A stretch of DNA of 64,000 nucleotides from Bythopirellula sp. (GCA_965216565.1 OZ244170.1:4800001-4864000), one strand, 5' to 3'. Counted from the stretch's first letter, positions 9,262 through 42,110 are shown. Notes: generated by a model not told the origin, from the letters alone. A program made the numbers and translations.

Positions 9262-9900
9262 CAGTCAAAACATGGCTTTTGTCTGCTATCAGCCAATGAG
9301 TGCCGTTTGCAACGGGGGGTGAGGGGCTGTGGAACATTTGCAACATAGCCGGGCAGTCGATCGGTTTTTTTGTTTGACAGTCACCCGAAGATTCGTAAGT
9401 ATTACGTCTGTGGGGCACCGGTAATTGATCGCGTTTTTCGACGCAATTGGCTGCCATTTCTAGGGATAGGAACAAACCTGCGACAAGTCTGCGTGCAGGA
9501 AGCCGTCGCTACGATTCGCGATTACGAATCATTCGGTCCGAAATTTGCATTCTTGGACGGGAGATTCGAGTCGATACGGCTCAAAGCGAAAATGTTGCGT
9601 TGATGCGGTTTATAACGGCAATGATGCTTGGGATAGCTCGACTATTGATCGGGTTATTCCGGATTCGTCAAAAACCATTCTCGTGGAACAGTGGTTGCGG
9701 GACCTTACTTTAGGCAGGCCCCAAGCGGAGAATGGAAGGATGGCTTGTCGTCCCGATGCAGTGAACGTTTCGGGAAGAATGTAAAGAATTTGATTGTGAA
9801 AGATAGCAAGCAGTTTCTTCACGAATTTTTGTTGGATTGATCCCAACACGGAACAGGTCTGGGCAAAGTTGCGTAGGCAGTTTGAGGAGCCTCCACTCGT

Positions 9901-28624: not shown

Positions 28625-29200
28625 TTACGAAGAGGCAGGAGCCGAAGATTCTTTCTCTTTGGACTCCTCCGCAGTTTTCTTCTCATCTTTCTTTGGTACT
28701 GGCTTTGGAGCCTTCGTTTTTTCGTCTGGCTCAAACTTGCCGGCAGGCCCCTCGAGCATCACGGGTTGGAATCCGGCCTTCTGCGAAGCGGACCAGAGGG
28801 ACTTAGTCTTCAGCTGCTTCTTCTTCTGCGGAGTTACGATTGCGACGTCGGCTTTGACATCGGTCCGTACTTTGACGACACCCTTCACTGTATAAAGCTT
28901 GCTGGCGATCTTCTTGGCACAATGCTTACAGTGCATGTTGCCCACGGTAATGACGGTATCGTCTTTGCCAATCTTCAGCTTGGTTTTCGGTCTCTTCTTA
29001 TCTTTGGACTTCTTGTCATCTTTCGCATGATCATGGTCGTGATCACTGTGATCATCGTGGTCAGCTGACTCCTTGCTCGACGTGTCCGACTTCTCTTGTT
29101 TGTCAGTGGCAACTTGTTCGGCTGTTATAGTACCTGTGTTGGCAAGGGCAAAACAGAATAGGAGCGAGAGTGTGAATAGAAGTTTGCTGTTAGCGATCAT
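28625..29200 (-). CDS. Exported heavy-metal-associated (HMA) domain protein
   Basis: Signal peptide, DHDDHSDHDHDH tract and GNMHCKHC metal-binding motif. Confidence 0.85.
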   Translation of the reverse strand: MIANSKLLFTLSLLFCFALANTGTITAEQVATDKQEKSDTSSKESADHDDHSDHDHDHAKDDKKSKDKKRPKTKLKIGKDDTVITVGNMHCKHCAKKIASKLYTVKGVVKVRTDVKADVAIVTPQKKKQLKTKSLWSASQKAGFQPVMLEGPAGKFEPDEKTKAPKPVPKKDEKKTAEESKEKESSAPASS

Positions 29201-29264
29201 CGAATAGGTCCTTTGAAAAAATCTATTAGAAATGATTTAGTTAGTCTTTGAATTATTGGATCAA

Positions 29265-30056
29265 TCAATTCCGCAGATAGATGCCGTCGGCGTCGATCAC
29301 CATCATACCACCCTCAATGATGCGAGCGGTACCCTTGACGACGACCGTGTCTTGCGGTTCTACGTCCACGAGTTGTTTGACTTCCAGCGGAAGTACCTTG
29401 CCGCCGTCGCCCAGGAAGCGGACCATCGCCAGCATCTCTGAGGTCTCGGCAGCATGAGCAGCACAAAAGGCACACTCTTCGCCGGGAGCATGAACGTGGC
29501 CACTGGCCTCGCGCATTGCCACGGCACCGGGGTCCGCTAGGAAAAACATTGCCTCGTTTTTCGCAAATGGATAGTCGGGCTGGGTACTCTCCCAGGGATT
29601 TGTCAGGCCACCGATTTGCCCAACAACGATCACTTCCATTGCTCCGATCGCCTCGGCACCGTGACCGTGTTCTGCATGGTCGCCGTGGTCGTGCCCGGAG
29701 TGATCGTCGTGGTCGTGGCCAGCGTGGTCCTCACCGTTCCCATTGTGGCCGTCGCCGTCGTGCCCCTCGCCTTCCTGGTGTTCACCATGGTGTTCGCCAT
29801 GGTCCGTTGCTTCGCCCTCAGCGTCTTCATCGCCGTGGTCGTGGACGTGCACAGCCTCTTCGGTGCCCAGCAGAGCGTGACGGACGTCGACGACCGTCTG
29901 CAGGCCATCCTCGGGCTCCTCCAGCATGACGAAGCGGGTTTTGTGCTTCTTAATCGTCTCGGGAGAGACGCTAGCCCCCGGTTTAGTGCAACCTGTGGCG
30001 AGTAACATCACGCAGGCCGCCGAAATTGCTGTAATTAGTGCTGTGAAACGTAACAC
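29265..30056 (-). CDS. His-rich putative lipoprotein, likely metal-binding
   Basis: AAGGAGG RBS before GTG 30056; LATGC lipobox; long His/Gly/Asp tract; HVH...CAFC motif. Confidence 0.75.
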   Translation of the reverse strand: MLRFTALITAISAACVMLLATGCTKPGASVSPETIKKHKTRFVMLEEPEDGLQTVVDVRHALLGTEEAVHVHDHGDEDAEGEATDHGEHHGEHQEGEGHDGDGHNGNGEDHAGHDHDDHSGHDHGDHAEHGHGAEAIGAMEVIVVGQIGGLTNPWESTQPDYPFAKNEAMFFLADPGAVAMREASGHVHAPGEECAFCAAHAAETSEMLAMVRFLGDGGKVLPLEVKQLVDVEPQDTVVVKGTARIIEGGMMVIDADGIYLRN

Positions 30057-30393
30057 GAACCCCTCCTTAGAGGTAAAAAACCTGTAGAACACTGGGACAG
30101 TGGACTTCTTATCGCTTAAGCAGAGCTATTTTCCCGAGCTTGGTCAACATCGACCCGTTTCGGCTACGTAGTATCGGGCACTTCGGTTCGCATCTCCTCG
30201 CAAAAATCAGGACATCGGACGAAATCCATCAATTTTGGTTTTTTCTCTTCAGATCCCCAAGAAGTTCTAGGCGACCGCGAAGAACTCCTTGTAGGGATCA
30301 ATTCATCGGCATCCCAGTTTGCAAGAAAGCATTGAAATTTTCTTCCCGGCTCCTGCCCGGGGCCCAAGTTTACTGCCTGAGGAGGGCAAAACC

Positions 30394-31209
30394 ATGATTA
30401 AGAAACTAGTTGTTAGCGTCGCCGCCGTAACGATTCTGTCCATGTTGGTCTTCGGATCTAGTGCGACCAGTTACATGAGCACTTCTGCAGAGCGTGTCTC
30501 GCAGGCAGTCGAAGATAGTGTCCCCATCGAATTCCAGATCGATCGGGCTCGGAAAATGGTGCGTGATCTGGAACCAGAGATTCGTCGCTCAATGCACGTG
30601 ATCGCTAAAGAAGAAGTTGAAGTAGCGAATCTTGACGAGCGGATTAAGAAGTCTGAGACGAAAAAGAGCAAAGAGAAGTCGGACATTATCCGTTTGCAAT
30701 CCGACCTGCAAACTGGCAAGAGTGTCTTCCGCTATGCGGGCCACCAGTATACAGCAGGCGAAGTGAAGCAAGATTTGTCGCGACGCTTTGCTCGTTTCAA
30801 GACGTCCGATGCCACTCTGGGTAGCTTGAGCGACATGCGTGATGCGCGTCAACGCAATCTTGATGCGGCCCGCCAGAAGCTGGCGACCATGATGAGCTCG
30901 CAACGACAGCTGCTGGTCGAAGTAGAAAACCTGCAGGCCAAGTTAAAGCTTGTTGAAGTGGCTCAGGCTTCCAGTGATCTGCAACTTGACGATAGCCAGT
31001 TGGCACGAGCCAAGGGTCTGATCGTCGATATTCGTGCCCGTTTGGATGTGGCCGCGAAGTTGGCGGATGCGGACACCAACTTCCAGGATGAAATCCAGCT
31101 GGAAGGCCCTTCTGCTGAGGACATCACGGAGCAGGTAGCCGATTACTTTCAACTCGACGTTGATAGCGACTCGAAGATTGCCGTAGCTAGCTACGTCGAC
31201 GAGAAGTAG
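30394..31209 (+). CDS. Signal-peptide/anchor-bearing coiled-coil protein, PspA/IM30-like architecture
   Basis: GAGGAGG RBS; MIKK followed by a hydrophobic helix; all-helical heptad pattern. The ORF is solid, the PspA relationship is inference. Confidence 0.7.
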   Translation: MIKKLVVSVAAVTILSMLVFGSSATSYMSTSAERVSQAVEDSVPIEFQIDRARKMVRDLEPEIRRSMHVIAKEEVEVANLDERIKKSETKKSKEKSDIIRLQSDLQTGKSVFRYAGHQYTAGEVKQDLSRRFARFKTSDATLGSLSDMRDARQRNLDAARQKLATMMSSQRQLLVEVENLQAKLKLVEVAQASSDLQLDDSQLARAKGLIVDIRARLDVAAKLADADTNFQDEIQLEGPSAEDITEQVADYFQLDVDSDSKIAVASYVDEK

Positions 31210-31221
31210 TGAGACGAATGC

Positions 31222-31260
31222 CCCCCTCATCTGTCCCCTCCCCCGAAGACGGGGGAGGGG
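31222..31260. repeat. GC-rich palindromic element (CCCTCnCCC/GGGnGAGGG family)
   Basis: CCCCTCCCCCG-AAGA-CGGGGGAGGGG 11-bp stem preceded by CCCCTCA; resembles 45636-45659. Confidence 0.6.
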
Positions 31261-31358
31261 GATATTGGGGCTACCGTTTTCTTCAATAACGTTCCCTTCT
31301 CGGGCCCTTCTCGGGAAAATTAGAACTCTGGCCACCCTTTGTCTTTCGCAGGTGCACT

Positions 31359-32777
31359 ATGTTCCCATCTTGGAGAATGAAAATCTGGGACGCACGTCGA
31401 GCCTTGAAAGCTGGACGTTGGGACGAAGCAACTGCCCTATTGCAACAAGAATCTGTGCGTGATTTTCTTCCCGCCAAGCGACTCTCTCAAGAGGTAGCTA
31501 CACTTCTTGCGGAGCGTGCCCAGCAGCGGATCGAGGCCAACGAAAGTTCAGCCGGTTGGCAGGACATGCGTCTCGCTGCTCAACTAGGGGGAAGTGAACA
31601 GCAGCTAGGCGAGATTCGCCAGGCCTATGCCGAACGTTGCCTCCAGCGTGTGAGACACTACCTTGCCTGTGGAGAAACAACGATGGCCAGCGAGCAAATC
31701 AACAAGCTCCAACGACGTCACCTGGGCGGTCAAGAACGACGAGCCTGGAAGCTGATCATCGGGCTAATTTCTCGATCCAAGCAACTCGCCCGCCATGGCA
31801 AAGTGCGTGCTGCCGACGAAAACCTGCAGCGAGCCAAGCTACTATTGCCCGACCCAGAAGATTCCCTCGCCGACGAAATCTCGCAACGTCAGGAACGATT
31901 GCGAGCCGATGGCGATCGAATCTCCCAAATCAACACCGCCCTGCACGAGGCCCTCGGAGAAGAGAACTGGACTACGGTTCTCACCCTAGCCGAGTCGCTG
32001 ATAGAATTAGCACCCGAACACGAGGCCGCACGGCAGGCACGTCGCCTGGCTTGGCAGTCTGTGGGGATGGACGCCACGCGTGTGAACCATAAAGCTCCAA
32101 ATGCAAGGGTGCGACCAGCGAAGTTGCGTCACTTCAAGTCAACTCGCAACGGTGCCGCGGCCAAAGAAGATACCATGACAGCGAACAACGAACCTGGCAA
32201 ACGGTTAGTCTCGTGGATTGACGGTGTCGGCGGATACCTGATTTGCCTGGGCGACGATGTGATGATTGGCCAACCGGCCTCACCCGCCCAAGTCGATATC
32301 CCAATTTTTGCCGATCTTTCGCGACGACACGCTTCGCTGAAACGCGACGGCGAATCTTATGTGCTTACGCCCGTGCATAACGTGAGCGTCAATGGCCAAA
32401 AGCTGGCGGGTCCCATGGTGTTGGGTAACGAAGCGCTAATCGAACTTGGCGAATCCGTGAAGATAAGATTCCGCAAGCCCCACGCGCTCAGTGCCACGGC
32501 CATCCTCACGCTCGAATCGCCCCACAAACTGGAACCCGCGGTCGACGGCATCATTTTGATGGCCGATAGCTGCATTCTCGGCTCTCAATCGCATAGCCAT
32601 ATTCGGTGCCGCGATTGGGAGAAGGATTTAGTGCTCTTCCGCCGGGGCCAAGAAATTTTTGCTCGCAGTGCCGATCCGCTGGAAATCGACGGCGAACCGG
32701 CCGACATAGGGGCCCCACTCCCCGCGAATTGCCGTTTGGAGGCAGAAAACCTGGCTCTCAGCTTCGAAGACATATGA
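31359..32777 (+). CDS. Helical-repeat (TPR-like) protein with C-terminal FHA-like domain(s)
   Basis: N-terminal helical repeats; VMIGQ...DLSRRHASL...VSVNG...IELG FHA-type pattern. Confidence 0.75.
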   Translation: MFPSWRMKIWDARRALKAGRWDEATALLQQESVRDFLPAKRLSQEVATLLAERAQQRIEANESSAGWQDMRLAAQLGGSEQQLGEIRQAYAERCLQRVRHYLACGETTMASEQINKLQRRHLGGQERRAWKLIIGLISRSKQLARHGKVRAADENLQRAKLLLPDPEDSLADEISQRQERLRADGDRISQINTALHEALGEENWTTVLTLAESLIELAPEHEAARQARRLAWQSVGMDATRVNHKAPNARVRPAKLRHFKSTRNGAAAKEDTMTANNEPGKRLVSWIDGVGGYLICLGDDVMIGQPASPAQVDIPIFADLSRRHASLKRDGESYVLTPVHNVSVNGQKLAGPMVLGNEALIELGESVKIRFRKPHALSATAILTLESPHKLEPAVDGIILMADSCILGSQSHSHIRCRDWEKDLVLFRRGQEIFARSADPLEIDGEPADIGAPLPANCRLEAENLALSFEDI

Positions 32778-32836
32778 ATTGGCCTTTGAAATCAAGGTTT
32801 TAGACAAGATACAATTAACATTGGCGAATACCAATC

Positions 32837-34828
32837 GTGCTTACCCAACCCGTCACAGAACCGATGAACGTTAAGCCTCTGGAATCTGAGCCCGACGAAC
32901 AGCCCAAAGCGGCTGCTCGCTATACCTATGCCAGCGGTTCAAGTCCGTTGGAAGGGTATACCATCAAGCGTGGTGTAGGGCGCGGTGGTTTTGGAGAAGT
33001 CTATTTCGCGCTTTCCGATGCCGGCAAAGAAGTGGCGTTGAAACTTATCCGCCGCAACCTGGACATCGAGCTTCGCGGCGTCACGCACTGTTTGAATCTC
33101 AAACATCCAAACCTGATTGCCCTCTATGATATCCGCAGCGACGACTTAGACGATCGCTGGGTTGTGATGGAATATGTCGCAGGCGAATCGTTGGAAGAGG
33201 CCATTGAGAGGCACCCCCATGGCATGCCTTTAGATTTGGCAATGCACTGGTTCACTGGCATGGCCGCCGGTGTTGCGCACCTCCACGACCATGGCATTGT
33301 GCATCGCGACCTGAAGCCGGCCAACATCTTTATGGATCAAGGCACCGTCAAGATCGGTGACTATGGTCTCTCGAAGTTTATCTCTTGCAGCCGTCGTAGT
33401 GGCCAAACCGAGAGTGTCGGCACGGTGCACTACATGGCCCCCGAGATCGCTAACGGTCGCTACGGCAAAGAAATCGATACCTACGCCCTGGGCATCATCC
33501 TTTACGAAATGCTTACCGGCCACGTTCCCTTCGAAGGCGAGAGCGTCGGCGAAGTATTGATGAAACATCTGACTGCCGAACCCGATTTGGAATCGCTCGA
33601 CGAGCCGTTCCGAACATTGGTGCAAAGCGCCATGGCGAAAGATCCCGACGCCCGCTTCAGCAGTATCGCTGCGATGACCAAACAATTGCCGGTTGGCAAC
33701 TTTGCTGAGGGTTACGTTCCCGTGACCGTGGTAGAAACCAGCCAGGCGGCAAACGGAGCCAGTGAAGAAGAACCCATTCTGGCCGGAATTAAGAAAGGAC
33801 TTCACGAAGCGGAATCGAGTATTCGCAACAGCGACATGCATCCGCTGCTGAAGAGTGTTATCGGCGTGGTCGTTGTGATTGGTTTAGTTGCAACGAGTGC
33901 GGAGTGGCTCGGCCTGTTCATGATCCTGGGGTTCTGCTACTTGATTTATCGAGCGGTACGACTCCTGGTGGACAACCCTCACCATTCCTCTTCGTCGATC
34001 TCTCCGTCGATGTCCCCCGATCATCCGATCCAGGGGATGCCGGTCGCGAACCGGAGCCCGGGGGCAGCAGGAAGGCCAACCGAAAAGCAGAACAGAGCTT
34101 CAAAAAAAAAGCGCCGTAAGAGCTGGCAGCAACACTTGCAAAACCACCTCGCCCAGCGAACCACGCGGGAGCGAGTGACGGACTTGGTAGGCAGCATGCT
34201 CCTCTCAGCCGTGGTGGCTGTGGTGGCCGCGATGCTAATCAGTTCGCTCTTATTAGGATCCCTAGGCCAAGGCATAGAGCAATGGCTGACGCTGACGATC
34301 ATGCTCTCCAGTTGGGCTGTGATGATCCCCGGCAAGTTGACCGAGGGACGAGTCGAAGACCAGGCACCCCTACGTTTCACCATGCTGGTACTCGGCGCGT
34401 TAGTGGGTGTTGTGTCGTGGAGCATTGCCGATCAAATGATGCTGATGCTCCCTGCCTCGCAACAACTTGGAATCGCCCCGGAGGGAACTCTAACGGCAAA
34501 CATCTTAGAAAACCCTATTGGCCCGACGTTGGCTGAGGGCTACCAGGCTGGACTTGTAACAGTACCGATGCAAGTTTTTGTCGGCTACTTTGCGATCCTG
34601 TTTGTCACGCTCGCTTGGTGGCGTCAGAGTGACTATTCTCGCAGCAGTCGTGTAGGTCTTTGGAGAATCGTCTGGTGCGGACTGGTAGCGTGGATGTTGC
34701 ATTTTGTGTGGTGGTTCCCCCAGCCAGTCGGCATGCTTACCGCTGCCGCCACGGCGCTGGCCGTACAACTATCTAGTCCGTGGATGCCTCCCAGTCGGAG
34801 ACGCGCACTCTCTGAGATGGAGGTTTAA
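32837..34828 (+). CDS. Hanks-type Ser/Thr protein kinase with polytopic membrane C-terminus
   Basis: [24 protein letters not shown] and GTVHYMAPE motifs; multiple TM helices after residue ~340. Confidence 0.95.
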
Positions 34829-34830
34829 TT

Positions 34831-35808
34831 ATGTCCGTGGCAATCTGTGTCCTGATCTTGATTCCCCTACTGCTATTGCTTCTTGCGGTCATGATCTTTC
34901 GCGCATGCAGAGGGCAATGGTGGCCGCTAGGGGTGCTCATCGGCCTGCCGCTATTCTTGTGGTTTTTGACTGCCAAGTATGAACACCAACAAGCAGATCA
35001 GATTGGGGCGGAAGCAAGGGCAGAAGCAGTCAAAGTACAAGCAATTGCTAACGAGCGGGTAAAAGCAAAGCTAACCAACGCCGAAAGCCCATCTTCAGCC
35101 ACTACTCCAGCGCTTACGATCAGTCGCCCTGAGCGTCCCACCGCGGAGCTCTGGGAGGAACTGACCAAGAGCCGCATCGATCTCGATGGCGAAGCAGAAA
35201 AATCCCCGGTGGTTCGTCAAGCGGCGAAAGCTGCTGAGCAGGCCGAAGAGGATTCCGAAGAATTGATCGCTCTCGATCCGCCCGATTGGGTGACGAATAA
35301 GCCCAAGCCGGTTGGCAATGTCTATCGAGTTGTTGTCCAATCCGATCCGTTCTACAGCGAGGATGAGTGCTTTGATCAGCTCGAAGAGAAATTCGAGGAA
35401 GAAGTTCGCGAGCGGCTGACGAAGATCCTACCTGCCACCCAGAAAGCGGATATCCGTGGGGCATCACTGGCGGAGCTTGGCATTCCGCTTAGTTTCGTGA
35501 TGAAGGAGATTTGTCGCGAGAGCCATACCACCCTGGTCGATTCTTCGGTTGGAACCATGAAGACAGTGCATGTTTTGATGGAGTTTGACGGCAGTGTCGA
35601 ACAAGAGCTGCGCAGCGACTGGATTGCCTACCAACGTCGGCAGGGACGAGGCATGGTTTCGAGGATCGCTGCGATGGTGCTGAGTGGGCTCGCCATTTGC
35701 TATTCTCTGCTGCAGGTGGATACGTGGACCCGCGGCTACTATACGAAGCGGTTGCTAGTTGGCCTGCCAGTGGCGATAATCGCTGTTGCTCTGTTGGTTT
35801 TTGCTTGA
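34831..35808 (+). CDS. Hypothetical membrane protein (TM pairs at both ends, soluble central domain)
   Basis: Starts 2 bp after the kinase stop; hydrophobic N- and C-termini. Confidence 0.8.
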   Translation: MSVAICVLILIPLLLLLLAVMIFRACRGQWWPLGVLIGLPLFLWFLTAKYEHQQADQIGAEARAEAVKVQAIANERVKAKLTNAESPSSATTPALTISRPERPTAELWEELTKSRIDLDGEAEKSPVVRQAAKAAEQAEEDSEELIALDPPDWVTNKPKPVGNVYRVVVQSDPFYSEDECFDQLEEKFEEEVRERLTKILPATQKADIRGASLAELGIPLSFVMKEICRESHTTLVDSSVGTMKTVHVLMEFDGSVEQELRSDWIAYQRRQGRGMVSRIAAMVLSGLAICYSLLQVDTWTRGYYTKRLLVGLPVAIIAVALLVFA

Positions 35809-35855
35809 GCGTGCAGAATACCAGCGAGACGTGCCTTAAGCCGCAATTAAAGAAT

Positions 35856-35944
35856 GGTCCTCTCCCCCCTGGGTAGAGGCTAGGTGAGGGCGAGCTGCCC
35901 ACAAGCTCAATCCCCCCTACCCCTTCCTGAATGGGAGCAGGACC
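35856..35944. repeat. Degenerate copy of the CCCTCTCCC/GGGAGAGGG palindromic element
   Basis: GGTCCTCTCCCC...GGGTAGAGGCTAGGTGAGGG...GGGAGCAGGACC; similar to 45825-45848. Confidence 0.5.
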
Positions 35945-35956
35945 AATAACTGGCTG

Positions 35957-36631
35957 GTGCACATTGATTCCACAATCGTCCGTTGCCGGGGAAACCAAGA
36001 TTTGTCCAATCCCGATGTACTTCTGGTGCAGGAAATCCGTCAGGGGAAGCCTGATGCATGGGATAAACTCATCGCGCAATACGAGGGGCGTTTGCTCTCG
36101 TTCGTCGAGAGTCGCCTGCATCGTCGGGCGGCCAGCGAAGATGTGGTGCAGGAAACCTTTATCGGATTCCTCCGCAGCTTGCCCAATTACGACACTTCCA
36201 GGCCATTGGAAAGTTGGCTCTTCTCCATTGCCGCCCACAAGCTGACCGATTACTTGCGTCGAGAGGGCCGCCGTCCTGCCGTACCGCTCTCCACCGGAGA
36301 CGATTCCAGTGGCAATTGGGAACCTGTGGGCAAGGCCCGTGTGGCAAGTAGTATTGCCCGCAGTGGCGAACGTCGCGGCATGGAAGAAGATGCCATTGCC
36401 GATGCCATGCGAGAACAACTCGAGCGGTGGCAAGATCAACAAGATTGGAAGAAAATCCAATGCATGGAGCTCCTGTTTGTTGTCGGTTTAGGTAACAAGC
36501 AGGTTGCCGAGTCGATTGATCTCTCGGAACAGCAGGTGGCGAATTTTAAGTACGACTTTCTCGAACGACTGCGCAAAGTAGTTCGTGGATCGAGACTCAA
36601 CGAGGACGTGTTTCCAGAATTACATGAGTAA
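35957..36631 (+). CDS. ECF RNA polymerase sigma factor
   Basis: Sigma2 region ASEDVVQETF...WLFSIAAHKLTDYLRR and sigma4 HTH GLGNKQVAESIDLS; true start may be TTG 36002. Confidence 0.92.
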   Translation: MHIDSTIVRCRGNQDLSNPDVLLVQEIRQGKPDAWDKLIAQYEGRLLSFVESRLHRRAASEDVVQETFIGFLRSLPNYDTSRPLESWLFSIAAHKLTDYLRREGRRPAVPLSTGDDSSGNWEPVGKARVASSIARSGERRGMEEDAIADAMREQLERWQDQQDWKKIQCMELLFVVGLGNKQVAESIDLSEQQVANFKYDFLERLRKVVRGSRLNEDVFPELHE

Positions 36632-37037
36632 TCAATTCACCAAAGCTCAGCTTGAAGCCTTTCTCGACGAGTCGTTGCCGCCCGAGCAAATGACTGCCGT
36701 CGAAAGTCTGCTGCGCGAGGACGATGGTTTGAGCGAGCAATTGGCGCAGCTCGTGGGTGAGCGCGACGCGGGTGTGCATTCGCTCGGTGCCATTTGGCGA
36801 CGCCATCGACTTAGTTGTCCAGATCGTGCGCTCTTGGGTAGCTACTTGCTGGAAGTGCTCGATCCAGAACACAGCAGCTATGTGAACTTTCATGTAGAAG
36901 CTGTTGGCTGTCGGCTATGCAACGCCAGCCTGGCAGACCTGCGCAAACAGCACGAAGAGACCGAGTTGGAGGATAGCTGGCAACGTCGGCAGAAGTATTT
37001 CCAATCGAGTGCCGGCTATTTGGCACCGGAAGATTGA
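36624..37037 (+). CDS. Soluble zinc-finger anti-sigma-like (ZAS) protein
   Basis: ATG overlaps the end of the sigma gene; LEAFLDESL anti-sigma-domain helix; C-x24-H-x5-C-x2-C. Confidence 0.7.
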   Translation: MSNQFTKAQLEAFLDESLPPEQMTAVESLLREDDGLSEQLAQLVGERDAGVHSLGAIWRRHRLSCPDRALLGSYLLEVLDPEHSSYVNFHVEAVGCRLCNASLADLRKQHEETELEDSWQRRQKYFQSSAGYLAPED

Positions 37038-37083: not shown

Positions 37084-38472
37084 CTACAGCCTTAGTTGTT
37101 CCAGCGGCGACTGCCAAAGCAGCTTCGGACTAAACAAAGCTGCCAACGTGCCGAGAGTTTCCGGCTGCTGGACGATCAGCGGCTCCTGGCCGTCGGCCTC
37201 AGAAAACCTGCGATTACTCAAGAGCAGATTCTGGAAGGCATGCCAACTGCACCGAACGGTTGGATCAGGAGAAGCAGTCGGCTCAAGTCGGGCACTGCGT
37301 CGAGTGAGGACGAATTGCTGAGAGTGTTCTTCCATGCAAAACTCAATCTGCTGCGAAGTGCTGATGCCTGCCTCGCGCGTCCGCTGATGAAAGATTGGAT
37401 ACATGCGTTCCACCCAGCGTTGGGGCGCAAGTAGCTTCATCATGCCGACGCCACCGTTAGCCTCTGAATCCGAATTCCAGCTCCCCCCGGCCGTAACGAG
37501 TAATTCGTGCATTGGATCGGCTGCTGGGGTGTGCAGTGATAGAAAACGATGATCGCGATCAATGGCATCCCGGCACGCGCGTGCCACCAATTGCGATGCG
37601 GCCGCAGGATATCCGGGCAGCGTGAACATTTCGACGATGGCTGCGTCGCGAGTAATTGCATAACCTACAATGTGCGGAGCTTGGCCTGCATGGGGCGCGG
37701 TAGGAGCCTTTCCGCTTCGTTTGACGGCAATCAGGATCTGGTCGTGAGCTTTACGACCGAGTAGCCATTGCCAGGTTTGCTCGCTGCGTTGCAAACTTCC
37801 CCACATGTTCGGGCAAAGCTGGTGGTACAGGCTTCGCAGGCTGTCGGCTTCAAAATGGCGCCAGGAGCGCACTTCCAACGACGAGCGCTTGCGACGCGGG
37901 ATAGCCCATTGGGCATCGAAATGCGAGAGGATGCTATGGGTGCTGGCTTGCGTATGACCTTGCCCTCGACAAACACTCCAGCCCTGCCGCCGGAACCAGT
38001 CGGGTTGGTCCGTTCGCACAAAGCCTACTATGGCACCTTCCCGAGCGGCGGTTTCTTCGGAGACCTTAAGCAAGGACCGGTCGTAGTTTGAACCGCGATA
38101 TTCTGGGAGCGTCACAAAGTCTTGGAACTTAGCAACCGCACAACGTTGCTGTTGGAACCATCCGATGTGTTTCGAGATTTGGACGTGACCAATCAAATCT
38201 CCCGATCGCACCAGCAAGACCCGGTCGCTGGGCTCGTATCCAGGGTCGTCCAGCCGACTTTGAAAATCCTCACCGACGTCCGATTGGTAGGCTTGGATCA
38301 ATAGCTGCAATACTAGCGCATGATCACCTGCATTGCCTGCGACCAGTTGCACACCGTCTCCGAGATCTTGGAGAAGTGTTGAACGTTGCCCCAATAACGC
38401 TGACTCTTTGCCAACGCGCAAGGGTAGGGCGGATGGACGATCAGATTTCCTGATATCCTGCATAGCGGCCAT
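37084..38472 (-). CDS. Eis-like tandem GNAT acetyltransferase
   Basis: FVTLPEYRGSNY motif A, FRRQGW, RSEQTWQW; length and layout resemble Eis (GNAT-GNAT-SCP2). Confidence 0.7.
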   Translation of the reverse strand: MAAMQDIRKSDRPSALPLRVGKESALLGQRSTLLQDLGDGVQLVAGNAGDHALVLQLLIQAYQSDVGEDFQSRLDDPGYEPSDRVLLVRSGDLIGHVQISKHIGWFQQQRCAVAKFQDFVTLPEYRGSNYDRSLLKVSEETAAREGAIVGFVRTDQPDWFRRQGWSVCRGQGHTQASTHSILSHFDAQWAIPRRKRSSLEVRSWRHFEADSLRSLYHQLCPNMWGSLQRSEQTWQWLLGRKAHDQILIAVKRSGKAPTAPHAGQAPHIVGYAITRDAAIVEMFTLPGYPAAASQLVARACRDAIDRDHRFLSLHTPAADPMHELLVTAGGSWNSDSEANGGVGMMKLLAPQRWVERMYPIFHQRTREAGISTSQQIEFCMEEHSQQFVLTRRSARLEPTASPDPTVRCSWHAFQNLLLSNRRFSEADGQEPLIVQQPETLGTLAALFSPKLLWQSPLEQLRL

Positions 38473-38617
38473 CCTTTCCCGCGGCGGGACTTTCAGCAGG
38501 GTTGCTCAAAGTTCCGCTGCCTCTGTTGTGCCGAACTTGCAAACTCATGACCTGACGAAACCGTGCTTATCAATTGCGTGCCAAGCAATGTTGAATCGCA
38601 TTCGTCTGCAGTTGAGG

Positions 38618-40234
38618 TTAAGGGATGGAGGCCGTGAAATCCAGAAGAAAATCTTGAATGGTCAATTGCGGAAATAGGCAAAAGGGATACTCTCGCGACT
38701 CTAACAACCGATCTGCACGTATTCGGTGATCTAATTCTGCCAATTCCTTGACAATTTCTTCACGACGACTGACCGCCAAATCATTCAACTGGCGATTTAT
38801 TTGCTCAATGGCTTTGTGCCTTTGCTCACAATTCTCAGGCGTCTTATCAAGTGTTATCCATTTGCGTTTTTCTGCGGACAATTTGTCAAATTGTCTTTGC
38901 TGGGCTTCGCTGAGTTGGTCGCGGTCAATGGTTACTTCTGGGTGATAGCGTAAGTTGCGCAGTTCCTGTCGCGTCTCGCGGTAGTACCCCGGACTCGCTT
39001 TGGAATGGGCAATTGGCAAACGCAACGTGCCCGTAATCGTCGCGTGCGTCGGGGGACGAATGCCAAAAAATTCTGAACAGATTTCGTCCGTTACCTGATC
39101 GTACTTTGCGCCGCCAATCCCATGAATGAAGATATCGGACAAGAATAGACGAGCAAACATCGTCGTCGTCAGGGCCCGTGTACGGAGCTTGATTCCTTCG
39201 TTTTCTAGAGCCTGGAGTTGATGGAGTCCCTTCTCTGTAGATCCAGTTAGAATATTCTCTAGCCTTGTGTGAAAATCTGCTCGGTCGGTCAGTTTCAATC
39301 CGCCGTCACTCTGAGAAACATACAGGGGCCGCCGCGTGGGAGATTCACTCGACCAGACCCACAAAGGCGATTCGATCCACCCCTCTTCTTCACTGAGATC
39401 GGGCACCGGCTGTGCCTGATTGCGCAGACGGTGCTCGTTTCGATACTCGGCGAGAGCTCGATTGTAGATCGTGCGAAAGGCTTCCGCATTGCTGAGTAAG
39501 TGAAGCACAAATCGATGGAAAGTCTCCGAGCGACAGACGTGGCTGTAGGGGACTTCCCAGGTTTCGTTGCCCCACGAAAGCTCCAGCAAATGACGAGCCT
39601 GCGAAAGCGTTTCGCCTAGGTTACGGTTTACACCGAGCCGAAGTACTTCGGGCCACCACTCCTGTAACAGTGGGCTGGAAATTAGCGGAGCGATCGTTCT
39701 AGTAGCAGCTTTGCCAAAAGAGTTCCACGTCTCCGGATTGTTGATGAGCCGTTCTTCGTAGGGCACTGTGCGACTAGATTTGTCCCAAGGGACATTGACC
39801 AGACGCGGGTCGTCCGCCGTGCCTGTAGGCACAGGCATGGCAGTGGCACGGCACAAATCGCTATCGATAACGATATTGATGGCAGACCCAGCGACTCGCT
39901 TGGCAAGCCTTCCAGCGGCAAAATTCTTGAGCCAGACGCCCGGATGATGCAATCCAGGCTGATGCCCGGTAACAACTAGCGGACCTGCAAGAGCTCGCTG
40001 CTGCGATGTATCAGAGTAAGTGCCTGTGTAAGTCTTGGCAGCGGAGACCAAGAACTTTCGTGCCTCTTCCCGCATTGCCGCCAAAGACTTACCGCCAATT
40101 GATAAATCACAATCAGCCAGCTCAGAACGGTTCTGTTCAATTTGTTGGGGGAGCGAATTCCAAGAAGGGTCGCAGAGCACTTGGCCATCGCCTGCGGGAG
40201 CACGATACCGGCGATACCGGATCGATTTGTTCAT
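38618..40234 (-). CDS. Hypothetical protein resembling BshC-type ligases
   Basis: VVTGHQPGL..PG...K, FIHGIGGAKYD, C-terminal coiled coil and SRE motif; 538 aa; ATGA-coupled to the GT2 gene. Confidence 0.6.
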   Translation of the reverse strand: MNKSIRYRRYRAPAGDGQVLCDPSWNSLPQQIEQNRSELADCDLSIGGKSLAAMREEARKFLVSAAKTYTGTYSDTSQQRALAGPLVVTGHQPGLHHPGVWLKNFAAGRLAKRVAGSAINIVIDSDLCRATAMPVPTGTADDPRLVNVPWDKSSRTVPYEERLINNPETWNSFGKAATRTIAPLISSPLLQEWWPEVLRLGVNRNLGETLSQARHLLELSWGNETWEVPYSHVCRSETFHRFVLHLLSNAEAFRTIYNRALAEYRNEHRLRNQAQPVPDLSEEEGWIESPLWVWSSESPTRRPLYVSQSDGGLKLTDRADFHTRLENILTGSTEKGLHQLQALENEGIKLRTRALTTTMFARLFLSDIFIHGIGGAKYDQVTDEICSEFFGIRPPTHATITGTLRLPIAHSKASPGYYRETRQELRNLRYHPEVTIDRDQLSEAQQRQFDKLSAEKRKWITLDKTPENCEQRHKAIEQINRQLNDLAVSRREEIVKELAELDHRIRADRLLESREYPFCLFPQLTIQDFLLDFTASIP

Positions 40235-41028
40235 GAAGTAGATCCCAACTCGCTACCGCACAATGGTTCCGGCAGGTCTTCTACCTCGGCGAGGTCTGCG
40301 ACAGCAATGGCGCGATCGATGACGTCTCGATAATAATTCAGCCGAATATCAGCAGCATCCAGAGTGCCACCGAAGCTGCGATCTTCATCCAAGTAGATTA
40401 GTGGCACAGCCGCTTCTTCGACGCAGAGCCCGTGCTTGGCAGCTTGGACCCACAGCTCAAGCGGCATGGCATAGCCAGTCTCTTGCAATTCCAGCTTGGC
40501 CAGTGCGCTGGTGCGATAGGCCTTAAGCCCACAGAAGGCGTCCGTTAAATTCATTCCCAATCGTCGATTGAGCTGCTCGGTAACCATCTGATTGATGCGT
40601 CGTCGATCGGCTGGCACTTTTCCTTCGCGATCTTCAAACTTGTTCAAATAGCGGCTGCCAGAGACAATATCCGCCTCGTTGCATCTCATTGCCAGTTTTG
40701 AGATCAGCTGAGGTTCGTGCTGGCCATCGCAATCGATCGTGACCAACACATCGTAGCGATGCACAATTGCAAAATCGAAAGCAGTTTGCAGGGCCGCTCC
40801 ATAGCCTCGGTTTTCTGGGTGGACGACGATGTTCAGATCATCTCGACCCGCCAGATATTCGCGAGTGCAGTCCGTAGACCCATCGTCCACAACCAGCACA
40901 TCGGTCGCATACTTCACGACTTCGTCGAGAACCTCGGTGACATGGTTACATTCGTTAAAAACGGGGAGAGCCGTTAGATAACGGGGAATCTCCATGTCCA
41001 AAGACGGGTCACGATTCGAAGAATTCAT
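40231..41028 (-). CDS. GT2 glycosyltransferase (DPM/PPM-synthase-like)
   Basis: LPVFNE, VVDDGSTD, NRGYG, IDCDGQH, GSRY and TDAFCG motifs. Confidence 0.92.
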   Translation of the reverse strand: MNSSNRDPSLDMEIPRYLTALPVFNECNHVTEVLDEVVKYATDVLVVDDGSTDCTREYLAGRDDLNIVVHPENRGYGAALQTAFDFAIVHRYDVLVTIDCDGQHEPQLISKLAMRCNEADIVSGSRYLNKFEDREGKVPADRRRINQMVTEQLNRRLGMNLTDAFCGLKAYRTSALAKLELQETGYAMPLELWVQAAKHGLCVEEAAVPLIYLDEDRSFGGTLDAADIRLNYYRDVIDRAIAVADLAEVEDLPEPLCGSELGSTS

Positions 41029-41141
41029 CTCGTTCCTACGTTAAACTCATGTAACAATCACAATACGTCATCGTGCAACACCCCATTTTAGATCGCCCCC
41101 CCTAAGGGTCAACTCAGCCTAATAAGGCAGCGTGGAACTGC

Positions 41142-41933
41142 TTAGATGGTTCGCAGAGGGTCTTTTTCTTGCTGACTGGCCCAAGCTTCGATGCCTGGAA
41201 CTTGCTCGCAGAGGTAGTCGGCCAGAGAGAGAAGTGCGAAACGTTCGCTAGCAAAATGGCCAGGTAAGACTAGCCCTACGCCGCGGGCTTCAGCTTCTAG
41301 ACACCCATGGAAAGTGATCTCTCCCGTCACCAGACAGTCACAATCACGATCGATGGCTGATTGTAGAAAACTTCCACCGCTACCACAGGCAATGGCCACT
41401 GAATCGACGATTTGATCGTCGCTACCAACAACTCGCACTACATCGATGTCTAGGAATGACTTGACTCGCTCGGCCAATTCTAACAACGTCACTCCGCCTG
41501 TTGATCCAATGCGTCCCGAGCCAACGTCTAGTTCTTCGCTGGAAGGCAAGGGCACCAACGGTTCGATTTGCTGCAGGCCGAAACCGATGGCCAAGTGTTG
41601 ATTGATCCCAGCTTGTGCCGAGTCGAATGCCGTGTGCGGACTATACACGGCAATCTTTGCAGAGATCAAATCCAGCAGTAATCCACCAGCGGTAGTTTCG
41701 GGGGTGATGGACTTCAGGGGTTGAAAGGGCAGGGGATGATGCGACACGATCATGTCGGCGCGTTTTTCAATCGCTTCGGCCACAGTAGTAGGCGTGATGG
41801 TCAAACACGTTAGGACCTTCTCGACACTCCACTTTCCGCTCCCAACGAGCAAGCCAACATTGTCCCATTCCTCAGCAAGCGCCGCAGGGGCGAAGCTTTG
41901 CATACTTTCAACGATATTTGAGACGGTTGCCAT
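41142..41933 (-). CDS. Nif3/DUF34 dinuclear metal-centre protein
   Basis: AEEWDNVGL, SHHP, HTAFD, ACGSG, TGE and GHFASE motifs. Confidence 0.93.
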   Translation of the reverse strand: MATVSNIVESMQSFAPAALAEEWDNVGLLVGSGKWSVEKVLTCLTITPTTVAEAIEKRADMIVSHHPLPFQPLKSITPETTAGGLLLDLISAKIAVYSPHTAFDSAQAGINQHLAIGFGLQQIEPLVPLPSSEELDVGSGRIGSTGGVTLLELAERVKSFLDIDVVRVVGSDDQIVDSVAIACGSGGSFLQSAIDRDCDCLVTGEITFHGCLEAEARGVGLVLPGHFASERFALLSLADYLCEQVPGIEAWASQQEKDPLRTI

Positions 41934-42110
41934 TGAGGAGTTTTCTACCGCGAGAGTCACTTATGGGAATCGAATCCATCATCCTAACGGCTGACATTTC
42001 TTACGACAAGAACCGCTAGAAGTGAGCGGCTGATGGGGGTTCCATTACAAATCGCGTATTCACGGCTAGTCGCGTTTGCCTACATTCGGCCTTAGAACTT
42101 CTCACGTGCC

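Follow-up and report, generated by a model that had tools for sequence, protein, structure and literature searches.

Kinase-associated groups of extracytoplasmic function (ECF) sigma factors in planctomycetes have so far been predictions without promoter, targets or mechanism, and a six-gene locus in Bythopirellula sp. raises the question of what such a sigma factor controls and how it is itself held and released. The locus lies at positions 30394-37037 of a 64,000-nucleotide stretch (GCA_965216565.1 OZ244170.1:4800001-4864000), called the window below; the closest named relative, judged by the sigma factor, is Bythopirellula polymerisocia (75% identity). We read the cluster, with a probability of about 0.5, as the control centre of a membrane-stress regulon common to most Planctomycetia, in which a membrane-bound Ser/Thr kinase would release the sigma factor from the product of gene 6. 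An earlier note on the same DNA had described six co-oriented genes, with the kinase and membrane-protein genes 2 bp apart and the sigma and zinc-protein genes overlapping, and all of this was recovered in our open reading frame (ORF) calls: the six ORFs are on the + strand, the 2-bp spacing is present and the overlap amounts to 8 bp. The other intergenic gaps measure 149 bp (genes 1/2), 59 bp (genes 2/3) and 148 bp (genes 4/5), and the genes on either side of the operon are on the opposite strand. Papers are cited by their PMC numbers, for the accessible part of each text.

30257-30284, + strand: predicted ECF-type promoter of the operon, CCAAGAA-N13-GCGAA, 109 nt 5' of the gene 1 ATG
30394-31209, + strand: gene 1, candidate remote PspA/Vipp1-like protein, ORF of 271 aa counted from the ATG
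31359-32777, + strand: gene 2, FHA protein, ORF of 472 aa
32837-34828, + strand: gene 3, Ser/Thr kinase, ORF of 663 aa, alternative start ATG 32864
34831-35808, + strand: gene 4, membrane protein, ORF of 325 aa
35957-36631, + strand: gene 5, ECF sigma factor, ORF of 224 aa, or 209 aa from the start TTG 36002
36624-37037, + strand: gene 6, zinc protein and predicted anti-sigma factor, ORF of 137 aa

Gene order and distribution

The six-gene arrangement is not due to chance. Among 60 loci with an orthologous sigma gene, all six genes stood in order in 28, and a further 11 were cut by contig ends and consistent with this order, so that the conservation of gene order on which the earlier proposal had been made to depend held for these; in the other loci sigma was detached from the upstream genes (12) or the set was partial or otherwise arranged (9). 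In the family f3, genes 1-4 mostly form one block, and gene 6, and in many cases sigma as well, is located elsewhere. Six-gene linkage, or a fusion of sigma and gene 6, persists across distant classes. A sigma orthologue was found in 286 of 301 Planctomycetia genomes (as a single copy in 283 of those 286), gene 1 in 275 of 301 and gene 6 in 147 of 151; outside the class, 39 of 187 sampled genomes of the phylum gave a gene 1 match. G407, G415 and G301 lack sigma, gene 1 and gene 6 alike. As these three genes are near-universal, single-copy and jointly lost, they were counted in favour of a common regulon. Nine genomes of 95-100% completeness gave no gene 1 match in these searches, and two gene 1 profile matches each were seen in G306, G318, G387, G391, G207, G223, G385, G413, G437, G453, G492, G535, G559 and G584.

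A conserved promoter-like motif before gene 1

The regions that precede gene 1 contain, in 50/50 cases, a motif of two boxes, CCAA(G/T)A(T/A)-N13-GCGAA, with identical spacing in 49 of them. A strict regular expression matched 35 of the 50 gene 1 upstream regions as compared with a mean of 0.78 and a maximum of 4 after shuffling, and the leave-one-out median for these regions was 22 bits versus 3.9 bits for shuffles. The geometry can also be written CCAAG-n16-CGAA, and it matches the spacing between the two boxes of ECF promoters. AAC and CGT have been described as the boxes of such promoters (PMC8103513). Sites of at least 14 bits also precede the kinase in 7 of 53 loci; directly before sigma or gene 6 there is, as a rule, no autoregulatory motif. 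In three distant relatives (L071, L073 and L074) the -10 part reads GCGAC or GTGAA instead of GCGAA, and the window holds another strong match (18.7 bits) at 9529-9556 on the - strand, to which the gene calls assigned no gene.

In 11 sigma-bearing genomes (72 Mb) the strict pattern occurred at 175 sites versus 32 for a backward control, and in nine sigma-less genomes (36 Mb) at 13 sites versus 11. The absence of sigma from the latter was rechecked by profile; six more genomes without a sigma match were left out of this comparison because genes 1 and 6 are present in at least one of them, G350. The sigma factor of the locus very probably reads the motif.

The sigma factor and its group

The gene 5 product scored over the Pfam cut-offs for Sigma70_r2 and Sigma70_ECF, and TTG 36002 is its likely start since the resulting 209 aa equal the length of most close homologues. 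In region 2.2, where the window has A-S-E-D, neither of the acidic residues E and D ever varies (66/66). The residue before them is Ser in 40 and Ala in 23 of the 66, and the first D of the DAED motif is replaced in most homologues; four homologues have D-A-E-D. The linker between sigma2 and sigma4 contains an invariant Ser (66/66) within an A-S-S-x-x-R-S motif.

The sigma factor likely belongs to ECF61, a group reportedly first defined by Jogler et al. in 2012; the assignment follows the group's published description. It is a planctomycete ECF factor with a kinase at position -2, and this kinase has six hydrophobic segments. ECF61 is described from six proteins as confined to Planctomycetes, with a kinase usually at -2 that has at least five transmembrane helices and with a promoter that is 'not conserved', and the accessible description says nothing of an anti-sigma, an FHA protein, a PspA-like gene or an output (Casas-Pastor et al. 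2021, PMC7826278); FHA is likewise unmentioned in the readable part of the supplement. This agrees with the suspicion in the earlier note that a kinase-associated planctomycete group had already been catalogued without an output. The model accession of the group, OJW24604.1, is not among the accessions listed for ten sigma homologue clusters. In contrast to the published description, an anti-sigma-like gene is found here at +1 or fused to sigma, and a conserved motif is present at the head of the operon, ~5.7 kb upstream. The missing site before sigma and gene 6 may explain why the promoter was published as not conserved. An FHA gene beside an ECF gene in Rhodopirellula (RB1789/RB1790, PMC2754498) is arranged differently and was set aside.

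The predicted regulon

Of the 31 sites above 18 bits in the window's own genome, 13 lay outside coding sequence, 15-300 nt before the start of a gene, where 6% would be expected; wrong-spacer controls gave 1/12, 2/13, 1/17 and 0/9 such sites. The placement relies on rough gene calls, and one of the 13 is the training site. Behind these sites were found two DUF697 GTPases, two SPFH proteins, YugP, LemA with an M48 peptidase, DUF4112, DUF6677, a MoxR-DUF58-vWA set, Yip1 and several small unknown membrane proteins. One of the SPFH genes follows a gene for a small membrane protein, which has no Pfam match and whose position makes it YuaF/YqiJ-like. A hydrophobic segment is present in 12 of 18 predicted target genes as compared with 28% genome-wide (p 8e-4). 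That the sigma regulon should include the first gene of the operon is predicted by the motif in front of gene 1, and an envelope-stress output, also claimed before, gains from its position before the flotillin/YuaF-like, DUF697-GTPase, LemA-HtpX, YugP and MoxR genes. In relatives, sites of at least 14 bits precede the YuaF-like/flotillin genes in 6/11 and 13/24 cases (19/35 together, three of them borderline, in one genus), DUF697 in 6/9 (one family) and DUF6677 in 8/29, the background rate being 1.2%. As the conservation of target sites differs among genes, the regulon would consist of a core, formed by the operon and the flotillin pair, and a variable periphery.

This predicted output resembles the SigW regulon of Bacillus subtilis, which includes pspA-ydjGHI, yuaF-floT-yuaI and ydbST (PMC3498285), and YqiJ/YuaF-flotillin pairs are described as partners of PspA (PMC11237479). 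The circuit had been called self-contained, which turned out to be too narrow because the regulon is predicted to be genome-wide and sigma and anti-sigma genes are dispersed in many genomes. Three further sites or targets in the genome may be mentioned: a 15.3-bit site before a DUF4190-trypsin gene that is followed by a gene for an E2-like (ubiquitin-conjugating) domain and zinc ribbon (L136, G000:C1:4015662-4017319), a 16.1-bit site before a gene for a four-region sigma-70 factor, as would be expected of a sigma cascade (L135, G000:C1:640307-642054), and the DUF6677 target gene directly behind another Ser/Thr kinase gene (G000:C1:4164890-4166727).

Gene 6, a predicted anti-sigma factor

Gene 6 encodes a soluble protein with two predicted anti-sigma-type domains, a zinc-free one at residues 3-59 and a ZAS-like (zinc-binding anti-sigma) one, followed by a conserved C-terminal FQSSAGYL. 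The putative zinc ligands C65, H90, C96 and C99 as well as S128 are invariant (36/36). Pfam analysis gave zf-HC2 below threshold (15.4 versus a cut-off of 22.2), and this family was weakly matched in 29 of 36 members at E<=0.1. The predicted fold is that of the ZAS family; the four invariant residues are spaced HX5CX2C, where the ZAS pattern is HX3CX2C with a distal Cys or His. A structure model of gene 6 (predicted local distance difference test, pLDDT, 88.7) was compared with 48,161 chains by VIA, and the top three matches were MucA for residues 3-59 (Z 6.3, root-mean-square deviation (rmsd) 3.3, 54 aligned) and, for residues 62-137, RslA (Z 5.5, rmsd 5.3, 62 aligned) and RsiW (Z 5.5, rmsd 4.1, 68 aligned). 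In Foldseek, RsiW and ChrR were the only rows with a probability above 0.5 (rmsd 1.5-2.3 over 51-52 columns), and a search of PDB sequences with the gene 6 profile gave nothing below E 0.2. In six loci (L070, L071, L073, L074, L075 and L077) sigma carries the zinc half as a C-terminal fusion. The predicted fold and the fusions speak for the anti-sigma role named in the earlier note, and gene 6 probably binds and inhibits the sigma factor.

Gene 1, a candidate remote relative of PspA and Vipp1

No Pfam family exceeded its cut-off for gene 1. Its family comprises 2162 clusters at E<=0.001, and in the atlas only unnamed planctomycete clusters were matched. The AlphaFold2 model (pLDDT 83.6) shows a hydrophobic helix, the predicted signal anchor, at residues 5-20, an amphipathic helix at 23-42 followed by a conserved Pro, a long helical hairpin at 45-193 with a beta-hairpin tip, a hinge, and helices at 202-225 and 244-251. 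Foldseek with this model placed Vipp1 at all of ranks 1-7 (202-244 columns, E 5e-3 to 2e-2, TM 0.26-0.42) and FtsEX-EnvC at rank 8. An alignment by hhalign with a profile of 22 PspA sequences was colinear (probability 34%, score 33.5) and scored above 30/30 block shuffles (maximum 28.2) and both reversals. The best sequence-profile matches include the coiled coil of RipA (E 0.01).

PspA, IM30 and Vipp1 are cytoplasmic proteins that bind membranes peripherally via an amphipathic N-terminal helix and assemble into membrane-remodelling rings, rods or carpets, and the topology of membrane proteins is commonly predicted by the positive-inside rule. In 116 of 130 sequences the N-terminal segment of gene 1 has more positive charge on its N side than on its C side, and in none of them the reverse holds; by this rule, a periplasmic location is predicted for the body of the protein. 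An A-x-A-like site was present in only 26 sequences of this set, and a lipoprotein was ruled out (lipobox in 0/130). Gene 1 probably has its anchor in the inner membrane and its hairpin on the periplasmic side, and we lean towards regarding it as a remote PspA/Vipp1-type (ESCRT-III) homologue. Of the earlier description as a PspA-like effector, the Vipp1 ranks and the similar predicted helix order speak for the likeness in shape; the absence of PF04012 and of any significant match, and the predicted periplasmic orientation, unlike that of PspA and LiaH, speak against it. No PF04012 match was found anywhere in the window's own genome. In 7/7 sampled genomes of the family f3 (L152-L154, L156-L158 and L160) a separate PspA_IM30 match was seen; these matches span only ~135-145 of 220 profile positions and lie mostly in short open frames.

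FHA protein, kinase and gene 4

The product of gene 2 has an N-terminal region of ~270 aa and an FHA domain at 303-364 (Pfam, 25.6 bits, cut-off 20.7), with a second FHA-like repeat judged by eye; the ORF is shorter than 320 aa in 14 of 35 homologues. A phosphothreonine-binding FHA pocket is made up of G-R, S-x-x-H and N-G residues. At the first of these, G-Q is found in 21/35 homologues and G-R in 6/35, the window having Gln; of SxxH, Ser is kept in 30/35 and His in 31/35, and no conserved Asn is seen.

The kinase (Pkinase, E 6e-52) has intact GxGxxG, VAIK Lys, HRD, DFG-like and APE motifs, which are conserved among 33 homologues, and its C-terminal multi-pass membrane domain contains six hydrophobic segments with short loops according to hydropathy, as expected for the membrane kinase that had been proposed. 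At least five transmembrane segments were counted in 18/33 homologous kinase ORFs, several of the others being broken or short. In the distant relatives L071, L073 and L074 the kinase has 13-14 hydrophobic segments. Gene 4 is predicted by hydropathy to be a four-pass protein, with two plus two hydrophobic segments flanking a soluble loop of ~220 residues, and from its charged loops we infer that this loop is periplasmic. It matched no family over cut-off in Pfam and none in NCBIfam, and no credible match was found in the atlas (the best named one, at 0.77, being a lead only).

Proposed mechanism and alternatives

In the mechanism that we favour, gene 6 would hold the sigma factor inactive. The transmembrane bundle of the kinase, probably together with gene 4, would sense damage to the bilayer or to membrane proteins, and the kinase would phosphorylate gene 6 (with the invariant S128 as candidate) or the sigma linker (invariant S117, alignment numbering), upon which sigma would be released. 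This input step is marginally probable, by analogy with PknB, which releases SigH and SigE by phosphorylating the ZAS anti-sigma factors RshA and RseA (PMC8999054). Once free, sigma would switch on gene 1 together with the flotillin and quality-control genes, and would also raise the amount of kinase, for which the second site in front of the kinase gene would provide positive feedback. Gene 1 would be the effector and possibly a feedback partner of genes 3 and 4, and the tandem FHA protein an optional scaffold rather than an obligatory phosphothreonine reader. Sequence evidence gives good support to the output half of this scheme; the input half is what we infer.

Several observations weigh against the scheme. 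No motif precedes sigma even where it stands alone (at least 14 bits in one genome only), and in f3 genes 1-4 stay a block from which sigma and gene 6 have moved away, so that a coupling of kinase to sigma is not required. Of the nine sigma-less genomes, six are small members of a single family. Among the predicted targets, YugP (site of at least 14 bits in 2/29) and LemA (1/9) are poorly conserved and mostly unsupported as conserved targets. In four relatives (60 regions) many strict-pattern sites lie before unrelated genes or within coding regions; of 58 first ORFs behind them, 33 were compared with Pfam, and the matches include LemA, SPFH, bPH_2, bPH_4, vWA and YidC-type proteins, plus many unrelated ones. 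The FHA pocket is degenerate, with the phosphothreonine-binding Arg missing in 29/35 homologues, and the gene appears to be absent from 4 of 20 gene 1 loci, since less than 300 bp are left there between gene 1 and the kinase match; the FHA adaptor step put forward in the earlier note is weak on both counts. The structural matches of gene 6 are weak by their scores (Z 5.5-6.3, and a non-significant E of 3.5-5.9 in Foldseek). For gene 1, PspA homology stayed below every significance threshold tried: the Vipp1 matches in Foldseek all have E>1e-3 and are not significant, VIA returned a generic hairpin with PspA (4whe) at rank 20 (Z 10.2, rmsd 2.0 over 122), PF04012 (PspA_IM30) was matched by 0/29 family members at E<=0.01, and the gene 1 profile found no PspA among PDB sequences.

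The main rival to the favoured mechanism is that two units share the operon, with the sigma factor controlled by gene 6 through zinc/thiol-redox sensing or proteolysis, and with genes 1-4 as the main output, an envelope machine whose kinase has other substrates. It would account for the way in which genes 1-4 keep together behind the motif in genomes with sigma and gene 6 dispersed, for the conserved motif at the operon head and for four invariant Cys/His ligands as found in redox-sensing ZAS proteins. As six-gene linkage or the sigma-gene 6 fusion is kept across distant classes, as the loss of sigma goes with that of genes 1 and 6 and as the PknB-ZAS precedent permits both inputs at once, we consider it unlikely. 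Quite unlikely, in our view, is activation of sigma by direct phosphorylation in the style of EcfP/PknT of ECF43, with gene 6 as an accessory or second layer, even though direct phosphorylation has been proposed in print for ECF59-62 and kinase-linked groups are described as typically without anti-sigma factors (PMC7826278). The largely replaced first D of DAED, the Ser that often follows and the invariant linker Ser fit such a mechanism, in which, for ECF43, a phosphate replaces the missing negative charge of DAED (PMC8999054, PMC8103513). The invariant E-D, the Ala that takes the place of this Ser in 23/66, the four D-A-E-D homologues and the predicted anti-sigma at +1 or fused do not, and given the invariant E-D an ECF43-type mechanism is not needed; the EcfP/PknT precedent that the earlier note had named, from Vibrio, is for this reason not favoured.

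Instead of being an ESCRT-III relative, gene 1 could also be a coiled-coil protein that is exported, of the same type as EnvC, PcsB and RipA, in which case the module would govern envelope growth or division and not stress repair. Its predicted export, its near-universal presence in the class, the RipA coiled-coil match and FtsEX-EnvC at Foldseek rank 8 point in this direction, which is nevertheless improbable in view of Vipp1 at the seven ranks above, the colinear PspA alignment beyond all block shuffles and both reversals, the nine near-complete genomes without a gene 1 match and the predicted co-targeting of membrane-quality-control genes. That the motif is read by another sigma factor of these ECF-rich genomes, and that the linked ECF has a different output, would fit the detached sigma genes without motif and the 26 ECF-like proteins of the window's own genome; as the motif falls to control level where the orthologue is missing, though other ECFs are kept, this is highly improbable.

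Comparison with known systems

Two known systems come close, in one of which the anti-sigma factor, RsiW, is a membrane protein removed by regulated proteolysis, and in the other of which the kinase, PknB, is a global, unlinked, single-pass enzyme. SigW-RsiW of B. subtilis resembles the locus by combining an ECF factor with a ZAS-fold anti-sigma factor and by its output with a PspA-type protein and a YuaF-flotillin pair (PMC3498285); here, the anti-sigma factor is predicted to be soluble and to have tandem domains, the likely input is a multi-pass Ser/Thr kinase, the promoter differs, and the sigma factor is not an orthologue. SigH-RshA and SigE-RseA with PknB of Mycobacterium tuberculosis share a soluble ZAS anti-sigma factor whose release can be triggered by Ser/Thr phosphorylation (PMC8999054), whereas the present operon has a dedicated kinase of its own, a multi-pass one, along with genes for an FHA protein and a membrane protein. 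ECF43 (EcfP/PknT and EcfK/PknS) likewise comprises ECF genes near a Ser/Thr kinase and an envelope-linked stress output; it has neither the acidic DAED motif, in whose place are uncharged residues with a phosphoacceptor Thr, nor an anti-sigma factor, unlike the locus with its E-D and its anti-sigma-like partner. As in the Psp/Lia and PspA/Vipp1 systems, gene 1 heads a membrane-sensor operon and has the predicted order of amphipathic helix, Pro, hairpin, hinge and two helices; it differs by the lack of PF04012, the N-terminal signal anchor, the beta-hairpin tip and the predicted periplasmic orientation, and control would lie with an ECF factor and a Ser/Thr kinase, where the known systems have PspF or LiaRS. 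Archaeal ESCRT loci, in which an ESCRT-III-type gene has a membrane Ser/Thr kinase and FHA neighbours, have Vps4 and winged-helix partners and no sigma factor in the accessible description, and are an analogy only (PMC10936438).

No account of the operon's anti-sigma factor, promoter, regulon or PspA-like gene was found in the literature covered; further primary papers and supplements may bear on this. The accessible main text of a survey of PSP systems mentions neither 'planctomycet' nor FHA (PMC11237479), the readable parts of PMC11032199, PMC10632474 and PMC2754498 contain nothing on the six-gene cluster, and the source data for Planctopirus limnophila, as far as accessible, have no FHA or sigma-24 entries (PMC10632474). 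Kinase-associated ECF factors were already known; new here are the conserved promoter-like motif, the candidate regulon and the candidate anti-sigma factor for an ECF61-like sigma factor.

Other features of the region

Further elements were noted within the operon:

31218-31275, + strand: GC-rich intergenic hairpin of a genomic repeat family, stable fold, 12 blastn matches in the genome including itself
32786-32815, + strand: candidate sigma70-like internal promoter before the kinase, TTGAAA-18-TACAAT, 10/12 matches
32804-32831, + strand: second ECF-type site before the kinase, ACAAGAT-N13-GCGAA, 19.8 bits, overlapping the sigma70-like candidate
35855-35945: GC-rich hairpin repeat in the intergenic gap, two further blastn matches in the genome

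The two hairpin repeats may affect transcript stability. The sigma70-like candidate is weak, as five such sites were found in the region with 3.1 expected, and a terminator scan gave chance level only. Divergent from the operon, at 28625-30092 on the - strand, are genes for a His-rich protein with a hydrophobic N-terminus and for a protein with an HMA (heavy-metal-associated) domain. A convergent block at 37084-41960 on the - strand includes a tandem-GNAT-type protein and a 538-aa protein without Pfam match, which we take to be BshC-like, with neighbours that are presumably glycosyltransferase-like and Nif3-like.

Implications

With these results, one kinase-associated ECF group gains a concrete predicted promoter sequence, a candidate regulon, a candidate anti-sigma factor and candidate phosphosites, all of which are testable in genetically tractable planctomycetes, and the working rule that kinase-linked ECF factors lack anti-sigma factors is put in question. 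The resemblance of the predicted output to that of SigW suggests that planctomycetes reached a SigW-like membrane-protection programme via different wiring. A bolder version is that in most planctomycetes a eukaryote-type kinase, by phosphorylating a tandem anti-sigma factor, controls a master regulon for membrane stress, whose first output, and the most conserved one, is a membrane-anchored ESCRT-III/PspA-type polymer at work on the periplasmic face of the inner membrane; taken as a whole this is doubtful. We know of no member of the ESCRT-III/PspA superfamily at that location. Should gene 1 prove to be an ESCRT-III relative that faces the periplasm, the superfamily would be extended and a handle on planctomycete membrane architecture gained, and a periplasmic gene 1 polymer could help to shape or repair the invaginated inner membrane and the enlarged periplasm of this phylum.

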